A stretch of DNA of 64,000 nucleotides. Source: Heptranchias perlo (Eukaryota). The DNA lies in contig NC_090326.1 of assembly GCF_035084215.1 (NCBI RefSeq), positions 73,532,001 to 73,596,000 of the forward strand, read 5' to 3'. The notes below the pieces were generated by a model. The model saw only the letters and a list, made by a program, of their open reading frames with translations, had not been told where the DNA came from and ran no database searches. The translations under genes were made by a program, and so were the position numbers. Shown in pieces: positions 20,694 through 64,000 of this stretch; the first letter of the stretch is position 1, and every line of letters begins with the position of its first letter.

Positions 20694-20819
20694 ATAATGG
20701 AGAATGCAGAAATCAACAACATTATCAAGATAGTTGGCCTTCAGTACAAGAAAAGTTACGATGATGCAGAATCTCTGAAATCTCTTCGCTATGGCAAGAT
20801 TATGATCATGACTGATCAG
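20694..20819 (+). CDS. TOP2B: TOP2B exon g (IMENAEINNIIKIVGL...KIMIMTDQ)
   Basis: tgcag| ... |gtcaga, 126 nt, phase 0/0. Confidence 0.95.
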
Positions 20820-28500: not shown

Positions 28501-29608
28501 GTCAAAATCTTTTCCCAAAGGTAGGGGAGTCTATAATGAGGGGGCATAGATTTAAGGTGAGAGGGGAGAGATACAAAAGGGTCCAGAGGGGCAATTTTTT
28601 CATTCAAAGGGTGGTGAGTGTCTGGAACGAGCTGCCAGAGGCAGTAGTAGAGGCGGGTACAATTTTGTCTTTTAAAAAGCATTTGGACAGTTACATGGGT
28701 AAGATGGGTATAGAGGGATATGGGCCAAGTGCAGGAAATTGGGACTAGCTTAGTGGTATAAACTGGGCGACATGGACATGTTGGGCCGAAGGGCCTGTTT
28801 CCATGTTGTAAACTTCTATGATTCTAAGTGTGAGATGATGCATTTGGGGAGAGCAAACAAGGCAAGGGAATACACAATAAATGGGAAGATACTGAGAGGT
28901 GTAGAGGAAGTTAGGGATCTTGGAGTGCATGACCACAGATCCTTGAAGGTAGCAGGATAGGTAGATAAGGTGGTTAAGAAGTCATATGCAATGCTTTCCT
29001 TTATTAGCTGAGGCATAGAATATAAAAGCAGGGATGTTATGCTGGAACTGTATAAAACACTAGTTAGGCCACAGTTCTGGTCATCACATTACAGGAAGGA
29101 TGTGATTGCACTAGAGAGGGTTCAGAGGAGACTTAGGGGGATGTTGCCAGGATTGGAGAATTTTAGCTATGATGACAGATTGGATAGGCTGGGGTTGTTT
29201 TCCTTGGAACAGAGGAGGCTGAGGGGTGATTTGATTGAGGTGTACAAAATTATGAGGGGCCTGGATAGAGTGGATAGGCAGGACCTATTTCCCTTAGCGG
29301 AGGGGTCAATAACCAGGGGGCATAGATTTAAAGTGATTGGTAGAAGGATTAGAGTGGAAATGAGGAACATTTTTTCTACCCAGTGGATGGTGGGGGCCTG
29401 GAGCTCACTGCCTGAGAGGGTGGTAGAGGCAGAAATCTTCAATTCATTTAAAAAAAAAACCTGGATGTGCACCTGAAGAGCCGTGATCTGCAGGGCTATG
29501 GACCAAATGCGGGTAAGTGGAATTAGGCTGGATGGCTTGTTTCTCAGCTGGCGCAGACACGATAGGCCGAATGGCCTCCTTCCATGCCGTAAATTTTCTA
29601 TGATTCTG
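25515..29608 (+). mobile_element. Near full-length CR1 LINE (ORF1 SGNH esterase part + ORF2), disrupted, with nested inserts
   Basis: GTND and DGLHL esterase motifs; YLNARS, ITETWL, FADD; tail ttctatgattctg. Confidence 0.92.
28281..28826 (+). mobile_element. CR1 3' fragment of another subfamily inserted into a CR1
   Basis: EYCVQFWSPYY...TRMLPG...; own tail ttctatgattcta; host frame resumes at agtgtgag. Confidence 0.85.
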
Positions 29609-30162
29609 TGAGCCAAAGATTATGGGCTCGATTTTACCGTCGGGTTTCCTGTGGGTTTCCAGCGGGGGGGGCCCCGAAAATCCCGATATCCAGTCACGTG
29701 ACCGGATCGCGCCGAGATCCCGGCCACTTCCGGGTGCCGCGCTGACGTGCGGGGCTGCGTGTGCAGGCCCCGCTGGTGGGAATCCCACAGGCAATTAAAG
29801 CCAGCGGGGTTCCACTTGAGTGTACTTACCTTGCTTGTTGAGGTCATTAAATGAGCTGAATCAGCTGTCAAAACAGGAAGTGTGGGATTTTAGCTTCAAC
29901 GCAGTGTGTGAAACACACTGGGGGAAACAGTCTCCCTTCAACCGGTCGTGTTCCAGCCAGCAGCCTGTGGCAGCTGCCAAGGTGCACTCCACAGCGGGTG
30001 GGAGAGCCCTCACCCACACAGGAGGCCACCGCGTCACGTAGGGCAACCCCTGCCCTCCACCACCCCCCGCCAAGCCAGAGGACAGACCGACGTGAAACCG
30101 CAGCCCCAGTGCGAGGAACCACCTACCTACCCTGCACAACCCCTCAGACCAACACCTGCCAG

Positions 30163-31380
30163 ATGGGTGGAGCGTTGACATCCTCGGAGGACGAACAGCA
30201 TGACCAGCCTCGCAGTCCACGCCGTCCACCTCGGAGACGTGGAGCCCCCCAACACGGTGCTGTGGCACACCCACCTGCACAGCAGGAGGGAGGGCAACCA
30301 CAGAGAGAGATGCGTCGCAGGAGGCACTACCCTCCGCACAGGGTGTACGGACCGAGGCTCAGCTTCATGGACCTCTCCGAGGAGCAGTGCATACGTCGGC
30401 TCAGAGTCAATCGCCAGGTAGTCGCCGACATCTGCAGCCTCCTTAACGACGAGCTGCTCCCTGATGGACCAAGCAGCATCTTCTTACCTGTCGCCGTCAA
30501 AGTCACCACTGCCCTCAACTTCTTTGCATCCGGATCCTTCCAGGGTGCCACCGGGGACATCACTGGGGTCTGTCAGTCGTCTGCACACAAGTGCATAAGG
30601 CAGGTCACCGATGGGTTGTTCCGCAGGGCCTCGCACTACATCAACTTCGCCATGGACGAGCGCAGCCAGATGGAGAGGGCGGTTGGATTCCATGCCATGG
30701 CTGGCTTCCCACGGGTACAGGGTGTAATCGACTGCACCCACATCGCAATACGGGCACCTCCGCATGAGCCAGGGCTGTTCATCAACAGGAAGGGGTATCA
30801 CTCCATGAACGCCCAGCTCATCTGTGACCACCGCCAGAGATTCCTACACGTGTGCGCCAGATACCCCGGCAGCTGCCACGATGCCTTCGTCCTCAGGGAG
30901 TCCACCGTCCCGCCCATCCTCCAGGCACCCAACGCCGGCAACAGCTGGCTCCTCGGCGACAAGGGGTATCCCCTACACACGTGGCTCATGACACCTCTGA
31001 GGAACCCCATCACCGAGCCGGAGCGTCGGTACAATGACAGCCACACTGCTACCAGGTCTACAATTGAGCAGACCATAGGGCTGCTCAAGATGCGCTTCAG
31101 GTGCCTTGATTGTTCTGGGGGAGCGCTCCAATACACACCATTCAGAGTGGGACGAATCATAGTTGTCTGCTGTGCCCTGCATAACATGGCACTACAGAGA
31201 GGGGTGCCGCTGGAGGAGGCCCAATCCACACCCGCCACCCACATTGAGGACGGCGATGAGGAGGAGGAGGAGGAGGACGCGGACGCGCCAGAGGATGGTG
31301 GACGACCCATGCGCCGAACCACGACTCACCGGGATGCTCGCCGGGCCAGGGAGGCACTCATACGTCAACGGTTCTCCTAG
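30163..31380 (+). CDS. Harbinger (HARBI1-like, DDE_Tnp_4) transposase, 405 aa, intact
   Basis: Uninterrupted ORF from first in-frame ATG; HTH region (ALNFFASGSFQ...CIRQVT), GVIDCTH, RKGYHSMNAQLICD, PGSCHD, LLGDKGYP, RSTIEQTIGLLKMRFRCL, CCALHN; acidic C-terminal tract. Confidence 0.93.
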   Translation: MGGALTSSEDEQHDQPRSPRRPPRRRGAPQHGAVAHPPAQQEGGQPQREMRRRRHYPPHRVYGPRLSFMDLSEEQCIRRLRVNRQVVADICSLLNDELLPDGPSSIFLPVAVKVTTALNFFASGSFQGATGDITGVCQSSAHKCIRQVTDGLFRRASHYINFAMDERSQMERAVGFHAMAGFPRVQGVIDCTHIAIRAPPHEPGLFINRKGYHSMNAQLICDHRQRFLHVCARYPGSCHDAFVLRESTVPPILQAPNAGNSWLLGDKGYPLHTWLMTPLRNPITEPERRYNDSHTATRSTIEQTIGLLKMRFRCLDCSGGALQYTPFRVGRIIVVCCALHNMALQRGVPLEEAQSTPATHIEDGDEEEEEEDADAPEDGGRPMRRTTTHRDARRAREALIRQRFS

Positions 31381-31712
31381 AGTCAGACAGTGCGAGGCGC
31401 TCGCATCTCCTCACCTGCACATGCGAGGGACCATACCAGCCCCCTCCACTGAAGACTGTTGCCAGTACTCCTGCACCCACAGCAGTGTGCCCAATGGGTG
31501 GCAGCAGGTGTTCGCCGTCATGATGGGCTGCACGGAACGCACCTATTGCACAGGCCGCGGAAGAATGGACGAGAGGTGGCAGGAGTGGTGAGAATATAGT
31601 GTTTAATATGTACAATGTGAGATAATATAAACAAAAAGTGTACAAATTAATAGATACCCTGGTGCATTCCCTTTGTGCTTATAACGCCTTTGGATTTCTT
31701 TTGCGGGTACCC

Positions 31713-32665
31713 CTACGTGGTGCTACCCCTGTGGCTCCAGCAGAGGTAGTGGCAGGTTGCTCCTGTTCTCGCCCTGACCGGGTAGATGCTTTGGGCGGAC
31801 GGCCCCTGGGTCACGGGCACCTCCACAGACTGCTCCTCCTGCACCGGGGCAGGGGCAGACTCAGCCACCTGGAGAGGAGGCACCATTGCGGGTACTGGTT
31901 GAGAGGGGGGCAACGGGTGGGACGTGGGGGCGCCTTGAGAAGCGTCCCCGCTTCCATGTCCCCGGTCACCATCATCCCTCTCGTGGCCTCGGCCCACATC
32001 ACCCCTTCCACCCTGCTGGACGGCAGTTTGGATGGCATGTGTGAGGCCTTGCAAGGCCACCCCTAGTGTATCCGTCAGCCTGTTTATGGCGGCGGAATGT
32101 TGCTCACCCTGAATCCGTACAGCCGTTGTCAGGGCCTGCACGGACTCAATGTGGAGCTGTGCGTGACGCTCGAGGGAGGCCAGCCTGTCCTCCACCGCAG
32201 ACGCTCCCGCACCTACCTGCGACACTATGTCGCCGGTACCCTCCTGTACCTGCGCCACCAATGCCCTCATGCAGGAGTTGGACTCCTCCATCGCCTGCGC
32301 AATTGTGGACAATGCGCGCGGCACCTCTCCCAGTACCTCAGCAATTAGCTGGTGCCCCTCGACGACTCTCCTTTTCACTGGTGGCCCCCTGGGTTCAGCA
32401 TCTGGGTCCGGCTGAGCAGAGCCTGGAGATGAGTGCTCCCACCGACGCGGACCCTCCGCGGCTGCCCCTGCCACCAGGGTCTGCTCATGCTCACTCATGC
32501 GCGGTGAATCACCAAGTGCTACCCCAACTAGTTGGCGAGGGGGACCCACCGAGGTGCGTGTCTCTGCGCTGGTGGATGGTTGGCTCAGATGTGACGATGC
32601 AGCCTCAGAGACCGCCATGTCCTCTGAGGAATCGCCCTCCTCAATCGCAGCGCTCGCAGACGGCC
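31713..32665 (-). CDS. Harbinger ORF2 exon 3 (Ser/acidic linker, predicted coiled coil; C-terminus probably frameshifted near 31812)
   Basis: ctgttctcttgcag| acceptor in phase 1 joins exon 2 in frame to the 343-aa ORF; spliced product 450 aa. Confidence 0.8.
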
Positions 32666-32781
32666 CTGCAAGAGAACAGAGGGCACTATGAGGCATGTGC
32701 ACCAACGTTACGGTGCGCCTGATGGCAGGTGATGATACGGTCACTCGCGATCATGGGTGTTGAGTGTCAGCTTTCCCTTAC

Positions 32782-32938
32782 CGGCCGTTTCTGCAGCGAC
32801 AGACTCGCCATCTGCGACCGACAGGCAATGTGGCGTGCGGGCGAGGTCGAGCGCCTCCACCTCTGCGTCTGTGAGGTCTACCAGGTGCGGCGGGCCACCT
32901 CCGGTGCGTGCCCTTTCCCTGTTGTTCTTGCTTCTCTT
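32782..32938 (-). CDS. Harbinger ORF2 exon 2 (KRSKNNRERARTGGGPPHLVDLTDAE...)
   Basis: ttttgccttgacag| acceptor, G|GTAAGG donor, 157 nt; TGGGP motif typical downstream of this Myb domain. Confidence 0.85.
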
Positions 32939-33262
32939 CTGTCAAGGCAAAACACAGATGCGTGAGTGGGTGCGTATTACATAGTGACACGCATCGAGCA
33001 TCGGTGTGGGTGGGTTGAGCGTGGGGCAGATGGATGGGAGGATGTGTGTGCCACATGCCCATCCCATTGCATGGGGATTGGGGTGTGTGGTAGTGTTCGG
33101 GTGGGGACAGGGACGGTGGGTACTTGCGGGCACGGCGAGGATGGTGAGTGAGTGGCTGTGAGGATTGCTGCGGGAGCGCTGTGGTGGCTCTGCAGGAGGG
33201 GTTGTGATCTGTTTGGCGTGATGGTGGGGACGGGTTGTGGGAGGGTGCGTTGGTGTACTCAC

Positions 33263-33505
33263 CTTGCCGGACCTAGTGAGGTCATTGAACCGCTTGCGGC
33301 ACTGCTCCCATGTCCTTGGGGTGTTGGCCCTGCTGCTGACCTCCGCCGCCACCTCTGCCCATGCCTTCCTGGTGGCGGCGGCAGGGCACTTGCGTCCATC
33401 CGCAGGGAAGAGCGTGTCCCTCCTCCTCCTCACGCCCTCCAGCATCAGCTGCAGCGCAAGGTCTGAAAAACGTGGCGCAGCCTTTCCCCTCGGGTGAACC
33501 ATCAT
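33263..33505 (-). CDS. Harbinger ORF2 exon 1: Myb/SANT-like (trihelix) DNA-binding domain
   Basis: MMVHPRGKAAPRFSD...AWAEVAAEVSS...RTWEQCRKRFNDL; ends AAG|GTGAGT donor; 243 nt. Confidence 0.88.
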
Positions 33506-34789
33506 CTCTAGCCTACTGATTGCAGCAGGAGGGGCTTTGGGAGACTGCCCCTTTAAGTGGAGCTCCTACATTGCGTCGACGGTACTGCGCATGCGCAGCC
33601 GGCCGGCACGCAGCTGGGGAGCGGAGAACCCGGAAGCAGGGCTTAAGCAGTTCAATTATCGCGCGGGGGACGCACGCAATTAGCCGTCCGCGTTTTCCAC
33701 GCTCCCGGAGGACCACCCGCAGGCCTGCTAAAATCGAGCCCTATATATTTTAGGAGTCTTATTAATCTCCTGGATGGGAGCTTTATTTTTGCCATCCCTT
33801 CATTTCCTTTCATTGCTGAGAAGTACTTTTACTGACAGAGGAAAAGTTGTTTTTTTGGGACTTATGGAATTGGCCCATTCAGATAAGATCTGTTAACACA
33901 GATTGAGAGCTACAAATGGCACAGTACCCTCACAAACTCCATCTGATGGCTTAGGTCTACAGAGGGCCAGTCTAATTAAAGTAGAATTTCTGCTTTCTGT
34001 GGTTGAAACATTCCTTGCATCTTGAAAAGCTGCTGATTTGAATGCACCCATGCCAAATGGAAAAAAAAGTAGTTCGTTGGTGTTGCGACCACCACTTTAA
34101 TCACTTGTGATTAGTATCTGCCAGTTAGTGGATTCATTGTGTTCGGCTGCACGTTTTCTGTGTAGTTTTGCTGCTCCAATTGCATTCATTTTATGTGGCC
34201 TCCACGTTTACCTTCCTGTTGTATCAATCATGTGATGTGCCTTGAAGGGGACAATGTGGTATGAAGGAGGGTGGCCTGTTTAATTTCATTGGTATTCACT
34301 GAGATGTTGAGAGTGGCCTTCTGGATGGTTTGAAGTTATGCTCATTGCTGCTTGCAATGAAACCACACCAGGATACTCCCCATAATTGACATTACTGGAG
34401 CAGCCTAGCAAAAAGAGATCTCATGCTGCTGCTGTCACTCGCTGTGGCTCCAGTTCCTGCTGAACTTTTGCCAGGGCTCACTCCCCTGCTTCAATCTCAG
34501 CTACTGCTGCTGTCCACGACTCCAAGCCCTGTTACTGCAGCTTACCAACTTCCAGCCTCAGATTTCACTGCAGGAAAAAGTAGAAAGGTGGAGACCAGTT
34601 GGCAGTGAAACATGCATGCCCTCCCCCTTCATTTCTTGGGAGAGACCAGATCATTTCCTGATTCTTGCTCCAGGTCTATGTAGGAGATGAAAGAGACCAA
34701 GGCATATAGAAAGAAAGGCAGAGAAATGTGAGGGAGATATAGAGATAAAGGGACAAAAAGATATGGAGAGAAATGTACAAAAGAACAAG

Positions 34790-35380: not shown

Positions 35381-35491
35381 GATCAGGATGGTTCTCACAT
35401 CAAAGGCTTGCTGATTAACTTCATTCATCACAACTGGCCATCTCTTCTGAGACATCATTTCTTGGAGGAATTCATTACTCCTATAGTAAAG
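35381..35491 (+). CDS. TOP2B: TOP2B exon h (DQDGSHIKGLLINF...FITPIVK), followed by a GC donor
   Basis: ttatag| acceptor; 3' end AAG|gctagt needed to keep PIVK-A; 111 nt. Confidence 0.9.
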
Positions 35492-36761: not shown

Positions 36762-37451
36762 GTAAGCATTTGATTATAAAGTTAATTTCCCTTTTTCCTA
36801 GAAAAACAGTATTAAAGTGATTATTTATTTATGGTGTGGGTTTATAGTTATCAGAATTGTGTCCAAAAGTGAAGTCTGTGTCTTTATCAACATCTTATAA
36901 TAAAATAAGTCCCAGTTTTCAGTTTAGCTGAAGACATGGGGCTCAATTTTAAAAGCAAAGTCCGGGTACGTTGAGGGCTGGAGGGGGGCAAAGAAGATCG
37001 TTTTTTTTTGAGCGGGCAGAAATCCTGGCTGAAGGACGCGCACGACCCAGAGTCATCTGGGTGCGCGCGCTGTTCCTGAACCCGGAAGTCCTGCCGGCAA
37101 TTAAAGCCGGTTGGACGATATTTAAACCACTAAATCAACTTGTTAAAGTTGCTTAAATTTAGATTGAAGGCAAGCGATTTCAAAGCTGCCTCAACGTGTT
37201 TCCCATACTGTGTGAAACACGCCATGGTGAAGGAGTCGTGTTTCAGCTGGCGACCATTTGGATGTTTAAATGCCTGTTTGACAGATGGAGATAAAAGGTG
37301 AGTTATTGCAGCAGGGCACTCAGTTCTCTCAGACAAACTTTTGGCTGGCAGATCTTTGTGTTAAGACAGAGAATTCTTGGTTTCCACTGAGACATTGTTC
37401 TGTTTACACATATTTACCAACTTTCCAGACCCCCTCAAACTGACACTCAGG

Positions 37452-38513
37452 ATGGGGGTGCACAATGGCTGCATTCACCACTACGGCCGAGGACGAGGAA
37501 CGTCACCATCCTTGCCAGGCACGGCGTGCACTTCCGCCACTTGGCCCTCCACAACACAGTGCTGCACCACAGGCACCTGCACAAGAGCACAGAGGGGAAC
37601 AACAGAGGGAGTGATGTTGCAGGAGGCACTACCCTCGTCAGAGGGTCTACAGACTGAGGCTCAGCTTCCTGGACCTCTCTGAGGAGCTGTGAATACGGAG
37701 GCAGAGAATGAGTCGCCAGGTAGTTGCAGACATCTGCAGCCTCCTTCATGCCGAGCTGCTCCTGGCTGGGCCTGGCAGCATGTCATTACCCGTCGCAGTT
37801 AAAGTCACCACTGCCCTCAACTCCTTCGCCTCCGGATCATTCCAGAGTGCCACCGGTGACATCACCAGAGTCTCTGTTGTCTGCACACAAGTGCACGAGG
37901 CAGGTCGCCGACAGATAGTTTCGCAGGGCCTCGCAATATGTCAACTTCCCCATGGAAGACCTCAGCCAGATGGAGAGGGCAGTGGGATTCCACTCTATGG
38001 CTGGCTTCCCACGTGCACAGGGTGCAATCGATTGCATGCATATAACAATCTGAGCACCTCCACACATGAACAGTCCTGGCCCCAACAGAAAGGGGCATCA
38101 GTCCATCAGTGCTCAGCTCATTTGTGACCGCCGCAAAAGATCTCTTCACGTGTGCGCCAGATTCCCTGGCAGCTGCCACGATTCGTTCATTCTGAGGGAA
38201 CCCAACATCCCGGGCCTCTTCCATGCACCGAACGTGCAATTGGGCTGCTCAAGATGTGATTTTGGTGCCTCAATCGTTCTGGGGGAGCTCTTCAATGCGC
38301 ACCAGCGAGAGTGGGTCGCATTATAGTAGTTTGTTGTGTCCTACACAACATGGTGCAACAGAGAGAGGTACCGGTTGAGGAGGCCTCATCCACCATCCAC
38401 ATCTGCCACCCACTTTGAGAAGGAGGAGGAGCAGGAGGACGAAACCACAGGCAGAGCAGCGGCTCACCTCGCTGCTCATGAGGCCAGGGAATCACTCGTG
38501 AACGGTTCTTGTA
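37452..38513 (+). pseudogene. Harbinger transposase pseudogene of element 2
   Basis: RQVVADICSLL, VAVKVTTALN, ARFPGSCHD fragments in shifting frames; stops; the GDKGY-to-catalytic-E segment is deleted near 38237. Confidence 0.88.
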
Positions 38514-38855
38514 AGATCAGAAAGTGTGAAGAGTCCAGTCCCCCCTCCATCTGGGAAAAAAACAGCGCCAACACCAGCCCCGCCGCCGCCCCCCCCCCCC
38601 CCCCCCCACCCCGGCTCAATACAGCCATGCAACTACACATACGCCCACTGTAAAGTGACCTACTGGTGGCATCAAGTATTGCCGTTCATGATGAAGCACA
38701 TTAAAGGGCCCTTTCACAAAAGCTAGTCAAGAATGGGCAAGACATGGCAGTAGTGGTGAGAATGACAACATTTAATGTGACCAACAAAAACCAAATATAA
38801 ATGAAAAACATGACAGTATGTCAGTCACCCTTGTGCTCACCCTTCATGATCACAA

Positions 38856-41085
38856 ATCCTTAGCCTTTCTCTTCCTACCGCTTCTACGTGGTGCATCCCC
38901 TGTGGCTGCAGCAGAGGTAGTGGCAGGTTGCTCATGTCCATGGCTGGACTGCTTAGATGCTTTCGGCCAAGCCCTCCGGGTTTTGGAGCCCAGGAGGGCC
39001 CCTCCAAAGACTGCTCCACCTGCACCTGTGCAGGGGCAGACTCGGCCATCAGGAGAGGAGGCAGCATTGTGGGTACTGGTTGAGAGGGGGGAGCCGGTGA
39101 GACGTGGGAGTGCTTTGAGTGGCGTCCCCACTTCCATGTCCCCTTTCATCATCATCCCTCTCCTGGACCAGGCCCACGTCACCCCTACCATCCTGCTGGA
39201 GAAAAGTTTGGAGGACATGTACGATGCATTGGAAGCCCAGTTGTAAAGTTTCTGTCTGCTTGTTTAAGGCAGCAGGATGTTGTTGGTGGAGAGAAATCTA
39301 GAATGCTAAAGGGAAAAGACAAAGAAGCAGTGCAGGAAAGTGATTGATTGGGGTAAGGATAACCAGATTGTGTCAGGAAGAGACAGAGCGTACAAACAAA
39401 AGACAACAACTAGGGTCCGGTTAAGAAAAAATGGTAATAAGACAAATAGGGCCATAGTACAAAAAAATGTTAAGATGTCTAAAAATGTTAAAAAGACAAA
39501 TCTAAAGGCACTGTATCTGAATGCACGAAGCATTCGTAATAAGGTAGATGAATTAACAGCGCAAATAGATGTAAACGGATATGATCTAATAGCAATTACA
39601 GAGACATGGCTGCAGGGTGACCAAGGCTGGGAGTTGAATATCCAAGGATATTCGGTATTTAGGAAGGACAGCCAAAAAGAAAAAGGAGGTGGGGTGGCGT
39701 TGTTAGTAAAGGATGAAATCAGAGCAATAGTGAGAAGGGATATTGGCTTAGAAAATCAAGATGTAGAATCAGTCTGGATGGAGTTAAGAAGCACCAAGGG
39801 GCAGAAAACACTGGTGGGAGTTGTCTATAGACCTCCAAACAGTAGTGGTAATGTAGGGGATGGCATCAAACAGGAAATTAGAGATGCATGTAACAAGGGT
39901 ACTACAGTAACCATGGGTGACTTTAATCTTCATATAGACTGGCCAAACCAAATTAGCAATAATACTGTGGAGGATGAATTCCTGGAGTGTGTACGAGATG
40001 GTTTTCTAGACCAGTATGTTGAGGAGCCAACCAGGAATAGGCTATCCTAGGTTGGGTATTGTGCAATGAGAAGGAGTTGAAATGTTTCAATGAGAGGGGA
40101 TCTTAACCCAACTAACTGACTACTAGGACCCACTGAGGTGTGAGTACCTACGCTGTTGTATGGCTCACTAAGATGTGTCGGTCCGGCCTCTGAGGAATCG
40201 TCCTCTGCTGTCACCGGTCGTTGAAGGGCCTCTAAGAAAACAGAAGGAAATATTAAGCATCATCACAGATGTGTCATGTTGCGATGAGCATACTGAGGTG
40301 TTCCACATTGCAAGCATTGTTAACATCAGTTCATGTTGTGTGTGATGAATGTTAAAGTTGTGTCACCAGACGTTTGTGGGGTGCCAGCCACGGCATCCCC
40401 ACGGACAGGCACGCGAGGGTGCAGCTGATCTCCAGCGCCGCCACCTCCGTGTCTGTGAGGACCACTATTTGTTGTGGCCCCCCCCCCCCCTCCAGTCCTC
40501 GCCCTCTCGCGTGCATTTTGCACGCTCTTCTAGATGGGGAGAAAGTACAGATGTGTGAGTGACGGTGAAGTGGCCAACCATGAACGCATTGCTTTGGGTG
40601 AGGCTAACCATGAAAGAGGTGCATCAGAGGGTGAGTATGAGACAGAGACATCACATTGCATCAGGATTGGGGTGAGTGGCAGTGGTGGGGTCACAAATGG
40701 GGAGGTCAAGAAGTGCTGGTAAGTTGAGGATGAGCCTTAAGTGGGTGTGAGGAACGATGTGATGGAGTAGTATTGGCAGTGCAGAATGAGTTGGGAGGGC
40801 GGGGGTGATGTGCAACACGGAATACAGGAGAATCGGTAAGTGTACTCACTTTTGCTGACCTAGTTAGGTCATTGAAACGCTTCCTGTACTGGACCCAGGT
40901 GCGGGATATGTTGCTGCTGGTGACCTCCTCTGCCACCTTGAGCCAGGCTTTCTTGGTGGCAGAGGCAGGGCGCTTCCTCCTGTTGGCTGGGTAAAATAGT
41001 TCCTCCCTCCTCCTCACCCCGGCCAGTAGCAGCTGAAGTGAGGCATTGCTGAATCTTGGAGCGACCTTGCCCCTCTACTGCTCAC
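38856..41085 (-). pseudogene. Harbinger Myb-like ORF2 pseudogene of element 2, interrupted by a CR1 fragment
   Basis: RRREELFYP...AWLKVAEEV...RTWVQYRKRFNDLTRSAK|GTGAGT, NARERARTGGG, C-terminal PATTSAAATGDAPRRSGRKRKAKDL. Confidence 0.82.
39283..40073 (+). mobile_element. CR1 LINE internal fragment (APE endonuclease) nested in Harbinger element 2
   Basis: ORF 39340..40050: YLNARS, ITETWL, VYRPP, GDFN; its 3' half closely matches 22670-23070. Confidence 0.88.
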
Positions 41086-41803
41086 TTGGGTCTTCTTGCT
41101 CTTTGCTGCAGCAAAATCCATTGGAGCAATGGCCCTTTAAATCTAGACGCTGCAGCTGACGGCCTGTCATGCGGGTGCGCAGCTTTCGGACGGCAAACCC
41201 GGAAACAAGATTAATGGCCACCAATTAAGTCGCGATTGCGTGGGGAAAGATAAGTTTTTATTCGTCAGGTTTGCCGCTTATTGACCGTTGCCATCCCCCT
41301 GCCCTTTCAAAATTGAGCCCATGTAATCTAAAGTCTGTTTACTCCTTCCCCATGGCAACCAGCTTGTCGACCTCAAATATTGGGAAATTGTAATACAGGA
41401 ATCCTATGATTTCAGGCTGTTTAGAACCTACACACAAGATATAATGAAATACAAACAGAATTAGAATAATCTAACTTGTTTCGTATAGTTTTTTTAAAAA
41501 TTGGTATATCTTTTTGACTTAAAACAAGTTTTATTTTTGATGAATTTGTTTCCCAATCAGTGCTAATGGTAAATACACCATCTTATCATGACTTAATGGA
41601 ATACATACATTTGACGGATATTGTTCTCTTTTCCCAGCTTTGGAAAAAAGTTCCCAGCCTCATGCCCTTGGATTATTCTAGCCCCATGAAATTCAAGCTT
41701 TGTATAGACATGGCTCAACATGTAGAACCAGCATTTAGAAGAAGTAAAACTGTATCTTAAAGCTAAATAGTATTGTAACTTTTGTATAAATCTTTTATTT
41801 CAG

Positions 41804-58727: not shown

Positions 58728-59487
58728 GGACCAGAAACAGCTGTCAAAATAACGATGAGGCTAATGGTGCTCGCCATTATTTGTGTGTAAATGGTACAGC
58801 AACTTCAGGCGAGGGGCAAATGCACGGTTAAATGCCAATATCCAAAAGTTGCTGTCTGAGTTGCGCCGCTCTGCTGTTAGCTACGAGAAAATGGTATTTC
58901 GCTGTCTGCCTCACCATTGACATGCAGTGAATATCGTGAAGTTGCTGTATTTGCACAGTAGATACAAATTAAACCTGCCGCCGATATTTAGGGCTAGTAA
59001 TTAGAAGAGTAAGTACACTTTTAATGACATGATGGTTAATTACTGCCAATCAACCTCTCTGGCACTATTACAAGTGTGGAGTCTCATTCCTTCAGGGTTT
59101 TAATTTTTCGGGGGAGATTTTAAAAAGGTCAGATTTAAAAAAAATTTTTCTTATTTTTCCTGTCTCTTATTTTCTCGCTCTCTTGATCCAATCTTTCTTT
59201 GCCTCTCTTTATTTCTCTGTCTGTACATGATTTGATATTGAATTCACCCTCCTTCTCAGTCCTTCCGCTGTTTATTTCCCAATCCTTAAATCTCATTGAT
59301 TAAAGAAATACCCTCTTGGTTGCCCTGTTTACTCAGGTCCCAGATGTCCTATTTCCCTTGCTGCATCGTTACCAGCCTGCACTTTCAGTGACTTGGTGGG
59401 CAAAAATGTTTTGAGCTGAAGGGTATAGCGACAAGTCTAACTCATGGCAGACGCCGTTAGATGCCCTGCTACTGCAAAATCTGGCCC
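58728..59487. mobile_element. Harbinger-type non-autonomous element, copy 1
   Basis: Right end TGCAAAATCTGGCCC, left end GGACCAGA (degenerate TIR); inverted second copy at 63583. Confidence 0.65.
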
Positions 59488-59756
59488 AAAATCTTCCTGA
59501 CTTTGGGGTCCAACACATGATTGTTGTTCATGAGGATTGGAATCGGAATATGTTGTTTCGTTGTTTGACCTTGGTTCTCTGGCACCATATGCATTTGCAT
59601 TGATTGTAATGAGTGAAAGTTGGAGGAATTTTGGATTCCATAGCAAAGTTAATATTTTGATTAATGTCATGATTCCATGATCCTGTATCAAGTTCTACTT
59701 TAAAATGAATCTGGGTATTCTTCCTCACCACCTGCATGCATCTTTTTCGTTTGCAG

Positions 59757-63443: not shown

Positions 63444-63582
63444 AGTAAGAAGTTGGTAAGAATATTGACAATAGTCATTTGAAGAGTGCAGAGGATGTAA
63501 AGAATAGGCTGCCGTACAAATCTGCTGGCATTATTTGTGAAGGTGACTAAGTTGCTGATGAAGATAGTTCTGTGATTATAAT

Positions 63583-64000
63583 GCGCCATAATTTGCTGTA
63601 GCAGGGCATCTAACGGTGTCTGCCATTAGTTAGACTTGCCCTTGCATTTAGATTTTTAATTTTTTTGCATGGCAAGTTGCTGATAACATCGCAGCGAGGG
63701 AAACAGAGCATCTGGGACCTGAGTGAATAGGGCAAGCAACTGTGTATCTCCTTAACCAATCAGATTGAAGGATTGTGAAATTAACAGTACAAGGACTAAG
63801 AAGGAAGTGTAAATTAGAGTGGGTGAATTCAATGTTAAATCAGGTACAGGAAGAGAAATAGAGAGATTGGATTGAGAGAAAAAAAAGTTTTAAAAAAAAT
63901 TAAAAATTTTACATTTTTAAAACCTCCAACAACAATTAAAACTGGAAGGAATGAGACGCCACACTTTTAATAGTTAATTTTCACGCCGTTCAGTGCGTTT
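63583..64000. mobile_element. Harbinger-type non-autonomous element, copy 2 (inverted relative to 58728-59487), runs off window end
   Basis: tagcagggcatctaacggtgtctgccattagttagacttg is the near reverse complement of 59434-59473; similarity continues to the window end. Confidence 0.72.

Follow-up and report, generated by a model that had tools for sequence, protein, structure and literature searches.

A 64-kb window of the genome of the shark Heptranchias perlo, which is the whole stretch of DNA analyzed here, contains at 29624-33741 a transposable element of the PIF/Harbinger type (the focal copy in what follows). Taken together, the evidence makes it highly probable that the focal copy, its transposase frame open and its Myb gene frameshifted, is a decaying, full-length member of an abundant family, lodged in an intron of the topoisomerase gene TOP2B; that it would need the Myb protein of another copy to move; and that its insertion, which took place millions of generations ago, is fixed or common. 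An earlier, sequence-only reading had described a near-intact two-gene element. The full length, the open transposase and the two-gene layout stood up to analysis, while the near-intactness did not, as the Myb gene is frameshifted.

The focal copy is 4,118 bp long. Its terminal inverted repeats (TIRs), GGGCTCGATTTTA, match at 13 of 13 bases, the mismatch beginning at base 14, and a clean 3-bp duplication of the target site (TSD), TAT, stands on both sides, just as had been reported. A scan of the whole window for TIR pairs that have no more than one mismatch over 14 nt and are accompanied by a 3-bp duplication gave two, namely the focal copy and a sibling at 36939-41320. The element combines the features of PIF/Harbinger (PHIS) elements (a DDE_Tnp_4 transposase, a Myb/SANT second open reading frame (ORF), short TIRs and a 3-bp TSD), and its assignment to this superfamily with two genes was borne out by profile matches of the transposase to DDE_Tnp_4 (E 4e-37) and Plant_tran (E 6e-10) and of ORF2 to Myb_DNA-bind_5 (E 7e-10).

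The 405-aa transposase frame is uninterrupted, in agreement with the sequence-only reading, and the four motifs IDCTH, SCHD, GDKGY and TIEQ lie at residues 189, 237, 265 and 300. Residues D190, D266 and E302, which are the commonest of their columns among 120 homologues, are likely to form the catalytic triad; the catalytic residues are intact. The protein departs from 40 close homologues at 14 of the 153 columns conserved among them. Its G63, M69, N83, C137 and C317 are rare (0-8%) at conserved sites, and several of the 14 departures are conservative or common to P0001, an H. perlo protein. The best matches are shark and ray proteins, headed by P0001 (80% identity, with a match that ends early), which belongs to the same family and differs in being annotated not as a transposon but as a host gene, "putative nuclease HARBI1". 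Two pairs of other Harbinger-like transposases, P0003/P0005 (Carcharodon versus Chiloscyllium, 83%) and P0014/P0016 (Pristis versus Scyliorhinus, 89%), are also conserved; possibly, they are domesticated shark-and-ray genes separate from the focal family. A Pristiophorus protein, P0026, is annotated with both Myb and DDE domains and is probably a gene model that merges the two genes of one element.

The Myb/SANT gene is convergent to the transposase and is divided by two GT..AG introns, 324 and 116 nt long (Table 1). Its minus-strand orientation and canonical splice sites had been recognized previously, while a frameshift near 31812 and the absence of a Glu codon at the start of exon 2 had gone unstated. 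Up to the frameshift, the three-exon model is identical at 391 of 416 residues to P0121, a full-length 465-aa Myb protein annotated in H. perlo (94% identity). Over this region, apart from the one absent codon, there are 5 of 416 residues at which the focal protein stands against a consensus of all relatives that cover the position. The 11-nt-longer form was seen in the sibling copy, in a contig of run X9 (11 gap letters) and in loose contig ends of runs X5, X10 and X6, and the close shark relatives P0121-P0124 keep a common C-terminal tail that is out of frame in the focal copy. The predicted focal product is 450 aa, in which a foreign tail replaces a segment with an RGRP motif and a basic run; the latter could be a nuclear signal. 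By analogy with better-known Harbinger elements, loss of this AT-hook-like, basic tail would likely impair the focal Myb protein.

A search with exon 3 returned eight protein matches, all from H. perlo and up to 94% identical. P0121-P0127 (H. perlo Myb-like proteins) belong to the same family by sequence; they differ from the focal gene in being annotated as host genes ("myb-related transcription factor" or "uncharacterized") and, in P0121-P0124, in retaining the tail. A further H. perlo protein, P0128 ("cyclin-dependent kinase 2-like isoform"), contains a piece 77% identical to 18% of exon 3, which is possibly an exonization of the focal family or an annotation artefact. An autonomous Harbinger copy has both ORFs intact, and because its Myb gene is frameshifted, the focal copy is not autonomous as written. 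Since its ends are intact, it would presumably still be mobilizable in trans.

Table 1. Features of the focal copy, its host gene and the sibling copy (window coordinates)
Feature	Position	Strand	Remarks
TOP2B exon upstream of host intron	20694..20819	+	residues 522-563 of 7yq8_A
Left TSD TAT	29621..29623	.	directly 5' of left TIR
Left TIR GGGCTCGATTTTA	29624..29636	+	13/13 with right TIR
Subterminal motif ACCCGGAA, left	29728..29735	-	core CCCGGAA near ends of both copies
Harbinger DDE transposase, 405 aa, single exon	30163..31380	+	open frame; DDE_Tnp_4
Inter-stop region of the convergent genes	31381..31678	.	AT-rich stretch; ATTAAA on minus strand at ~31607
Out-of-frame C-terminal basic-tail remnant	31679..31792	-	tblastn: 89-92% vs P0121, P0122, P0124; 84% vs P0123
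Myb/SANT exon 3	31713..32665	-	read to early stop 31713-31715 in focal copy
Frameshift site	31793..31814	-	22 nt vs 11 codons in relatives (11-nt shortfall)
Myb/SANT exon 2	32782..32938	-	without one Glu codon found in P0121, P0122
Myb/SANT exon 1, DNA-binding domain, predicted isoelectric point 11.3	33263..33505	-	Myb_DNA-bind_5
Subterminal motif ACCCGGAA, right	33628..33635	+	inverted vs left one
Right TIR	33729..33741	-	13/13 with left TIR
Right TSD TAT	33742..33744	.	directly 3' of right TIR
TOP2 exon downstream of host intron	35381..35491	+	residues 564-600 of 7yq8_A
Decayed older sibling Harbinger	36939..41320	+	later TOP2B intron; TIRs 16/17; TSD ATG; in-frame stops

The size of the family was estimated from two host DNA runs, X1 and X2, available as assembled contigs of one host sample. 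In X2, summed contig depth over the focal copy ranged from 125,923 to 1,521,722, compared with 20.9 on the unique flank (X1 was similar), a ratio of 6,000-73,000 that is not to be read as a copy number. With the ratio divided by the maximum 31-fold overlap per position, we infer a minimum of about 200 copies where the element is least covered and of about 2,300 where it is most covered, and the family probably comprises thousands of copies, and hundreds at least. Among the 81,938 aligned X1 contigs, a total that includes flanking repeats, 11% are at least 99% identical to the focal copy, 25% are 95-99%, 43% are 90-95% and 21% are 85-90%. Divergence of the copies beyond about 10%, which the sequence-only reading had counted against recent activity, is thus not the commonest state.

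The focal copy differs from at least 80% of the X2 family depth at 47 places, that is, at no more than 1.1% of about 4,118 positions. Nine of the 36 high-share differences examined (taken from the best 40 of 644 and the best 40 of 130 rows) are of the CpG-decay type. Post-insertion divergence is estimated at roughly 0.25-1%. With a shark mutation rate of 7e-10 per base per generation (interval 1.4-14.1e-10; reported for another shark species, PMC10587355), this would make the insertion about 4-16 million generations old (2-80 million over the whole rate interval); fast CpG decay would shorten the estimate. The description of the element as young therefore holds relative to other repeats, with about 1% or less separating it from the family majority, and fails in absolute terms, with an age of millions of generations. 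In X1 as in X2, an unbroken contig at single-copy depth crosses the right junction from 33717 into the unique flank with no differences, a weak sign that the insertion is present on both chromosomes of the host sample. It is likely that the insertion is fixed or common.

Several points weigh against this account. Between 11 and 14% of the aligned host contigs are at least 99% identical to the focal copy. Of the seven listed high-share differences that fall in the transposase, six are synonymous (P ~0.002 if neutral); an active progenitor therefore likely passed on part of the 1.1%, and the insertion may be more recent than that divergence implies. The mutation rate behind the age comes from a single other shark species and has a confidence interval spanning a factor of ten, and homozygosity is deduced from assembled contigs of one sample, which lose rare variants. 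Finally, the RGRP segment of the relatives matches Pfam AT_hook at E 0.05-0.07, which is below the cut-off, and the impairment through loss of the tail is a predicted one.

The sequence-only reading had favored recent or current activity, and a corresponding alternative is that the family is transposing now, that intact copies supply both proteins, and that the focal copy is very recent, its frameshift having been inherited or tolerated. We consider this quite unlikely. The open transposase frame, the perfect TIRs and a CpG observed/expected ratio of 0.67 (256 CpGs, against 0.29 and 0.35 in neighboring window DNA, which confirms the abundant retained CpG noted before) would all suit a recent arrival, as would the mostly synonymous transposase differences and the existence of P0121. 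At 1% divergence, however, an open 405-codon frame and 32 unaltered terminal bases are each expected with a chance of about 70%. Because the decayed sibling, itself dead, likewise keeps matching TIRs and a clean TSD, these do not date the focal copy; perfect TIRs, a clean TSD and CpG content were accordingly rejected as proof of youth, the CpG ratio of the sibling being 0.47-0.51. CpG-decay changes and substitutions at conserved residues of both proteins also speak against a very recent origin. No empty allele at the focal site occurs among the joints listed (15 of 91 and 15 of 43), and the right junction is unbroken at single-copy depth, so that current activity is not demonstrated. A joint skipping the element, which would confirm the TSD through an empty orthologous or paralogous site, does not occur among those listed in eight runs. 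Runs X5-X8 are RNA runs by guess. One X5 contig has joints at 32919-33262 and 32666-32847, with a depth of 69.4 each, that fit removal of both predicted introns and have depth 0 in the DNA run X1; no splice joint occurs in X6 among the best 15 of 43 joints listed. The contig, which would also suit a family active now, therefore indicates that members other than the focal copy are likely still transcribed and spliced. The letters at the first splice joint fit a P0122-type sister subfamily and not the focal copy.

Near-identical pieces in other organisms raise the alternative of horizontal transfer between species, which we regard as distinctly improbable. Pieces with 92-98% identity to the element, non-coding parts included (10 computed), occur in the runs of organisms B, D and E. 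The TOP2B introns of X9 do not align at 85%, since its TOP2B matches stop in loose ends at exon borders, and the depth profiles of X9, X11 and X12 are uncorrelated with that of the host (rho 0.17-0.24, not significant), thereby giving no positive sign of carry-over. Against transfer stand the low depths (mostly 2-14) and the 18-66 contigs per run, which trace library carry-over would resemble, and the restriction of the eight exon 3 matches to H. perlo; for the X9, X11 and X12 pieces, transfer and carry-over are indistinguishable here. X9 and X11 have identical indels at 29993, 29999 and 30204. In X10 (organism C), the family is present at high depth with a profile like that of the host (rho 0.91), and the unique flank is uncovered. 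That the host might instead have domesticated the element as a HARBI1/NAIF1-like pair of genes is scarcely credible. Although the nearest transposases bear the database name "putative nuclease HARBI1", the TIRs, the TSD, the hundreds or more of paralogues, the frameshifted Myb gene and the changes at conserved residues all argue otherwise, and identity is about 39% to the rodent HARBI1-named P0107 versus 80% to P0001. The domesticated type is a single-copy gene with a conserved orthologue and without TIRs or TSD; domestication, which the sequence-only reading had itself named as a competing outcome, was rejected for an element with both and with a depth thousands of times that of its flank.

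How the decaying focal copy and its relatives might move can be outlined from the zebrafish element Harbinger3_DR. As described for Harbinger3_DR and Ping/Pong, transposition needs both proteins; the Myb partner binds to a short motif of the subterminal region and delivers the transposase to the nucleus (PMC2836001, PMC9710019, PMC9392472, PMC3158080). By analogy, the Myb/SANT protein of this family would bind subterminal motifs and escort its partner to the nucleus, the DDE transposase would cut at the GGG ends of the element, and insertion would occur into a loosely palindromic AAA-N3-core-N3-TTT with duplication of the 3-bp core. The focal Myb protein would retain its DNA-binding domain and lose the AT-hook-like, basic C-terminal tail. 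A candidate binding site is ACCCGGAA, whose core CCCGGAA has four occurrences in the 64 kb, one close to either end of the focal copy and one close to either end of the sibling; a 7-mer common to all four ends arose in 14 of 1000 shuffles. Alternatively, ACCCGGAA could be a promoter element, which we take to be ETS-like.

The reconstructed pre-insertion site of the focal copy is AAA GAT TAT ATA TTT; of 55,480 background positions, 73 fit the pattern AAA-N9-TTT. The empty site of the sibling keeps four of the six outer-arm letters, a level equaled at 7% of background positions and hence not significant. The 15-bp zebrafish target of Harbinger3_DR is AAACACCWGGTCTTT, with a CWG core (PMC3016246). 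Compared by description, the two elements are alike in having a DDE transposase, a Myb-like protein and a 3-bp TSD, and the focal empty site keeps the AAA/TTT outer arms of AAACACCWGGTCTTT. They are also alike in a motif recurring at both ends (a 9-bp Myb site there, ACCCGGAA here), the comparison being one of recurrence and not of letters. They differ in the core, which is TAT in the focal copy and ATG in the sibling instead of CWG, and in the focal copy being a natural one whose Myb gene is broken. A similar comparison applies to the NuwaI group (Han et al., PMC4482050), in which two ORFs, TIRs of 12-61 bp starting with GGG, a length of about 4.1-4.5 kb and an animal host are likewise described. 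Its defining TSD is CWG (PMC4482050), while TAT and ATG were found at the two sites examined here; by sequence, the focal element thus resembles NuwaI in its GGG ends and layout and lacks the CWG TSD at both sites.

Other sequences within and beside the focal copy deserve mention. A 14-bp palindrome with GCGCATGCGC (33585-33598) lies upstream of the Myb gene and TCACGTGA (29694-29701) lies near the left end, each being unique in the window. They resemble NRF1 and E-box promoter sites, which could render the promoters of the focal copy methylation-sensitive. The minus-strand ATTAAA at about 31607 is a candidate poly(A) signal. The focal copy was inserted about 14 bp past the tail of a long interspersed element (LINE) 3' end (29012-29623), presumably of a CR1-like class, judging from self-matches.

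The nearest exons flanking the focal copy correspond to adjoining stretches of a TOP2B chain (residues 522-563 and 564-600), which places the element inside a single intron, about 14.5 kb long. Of the four exons that were compared, three gave their highest score with TOP2B and the fourth a slightly higher one with TOP2A, so that the host gene is likely shark TOP2B, as had been proposed. The sibling is 78% identical to the focal copy over part of the transposase and contains a LINE-like fragment at about 39300-40100. One gene, TOP2B, thus carries two related Harbinger insertions in the same orientation.

It had also been suggested that the family drives GGG-ended miniature transposable elements with inverted repeats (MITEs) in the window. 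No complete MITE with focal ends was found in the 64 kb by a TIR-pair scan (GG start, 14 nt, 80-6000 bp apart, at most two mismatches, or three with a TSD), by a 13-mer search (at most three mismatches) or by blastn with the four ends of the focal copy and the sibling as queries, and the suggestion was not upheld. Two old fragments at 59064-59488 and 63582-63974 are 69% alike and have one TIR-like end each, the first agreeing with the focal TIR at 10 of 13 bases. They were rejected as MITEs, with neither a TSD-flanked partner end nor an internal match to the element.

The record of such elements in cartilaginous fish is uneven. Two surveys reported that sharks, or the elephant shark, lack Harbinger or PHIS elements, and one of them urged that more cartilaginous fish be checked (PMC4482050, PMC9179366); the statement on PHIS elements in sharks is from PMC4482050. 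PIF-Harbinger was, on the other hand, listed for the whale shark (PMC8455134). Within the open literature on shark Harbinger elements (subscription journals, Repbase and supplements with repeat tables lying outside it), no description of the focal family was found among the papers listed. A comparable vertebrate case is Harbinger-Snek of sea kraits, for which a large expansion, intronic insertions, 269 apparently intact copies in one species and RNA evidence were reported (PMC8437027). The focal family is like it in a large expansion with intronic insertions and probable RNA evidence; the difference is that Harbinger-Snek comes with a horizontal transfer to which a date has been given and with copies counted across the genome (PMC8437027).

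A shark family that is high in copy number, has two genes and is probably still transcribed adds to the Harbinger record of cartilaginous fish. It is rather unlikely that this is a still-mobile shark Harbinger family of thousands of copies, with intact members that work without reconstruction, with the AAA/TTT arms kept and the CWG core relaxed, and which has maybe crossed species. The family could serve as a natural test system for target choice, although the broken Myb gene makes the focal copy itself ill suited to that use. The case also shows that, where mutation is as slow as in sharks, near-intactness of an element does not have to mean recent insertion.

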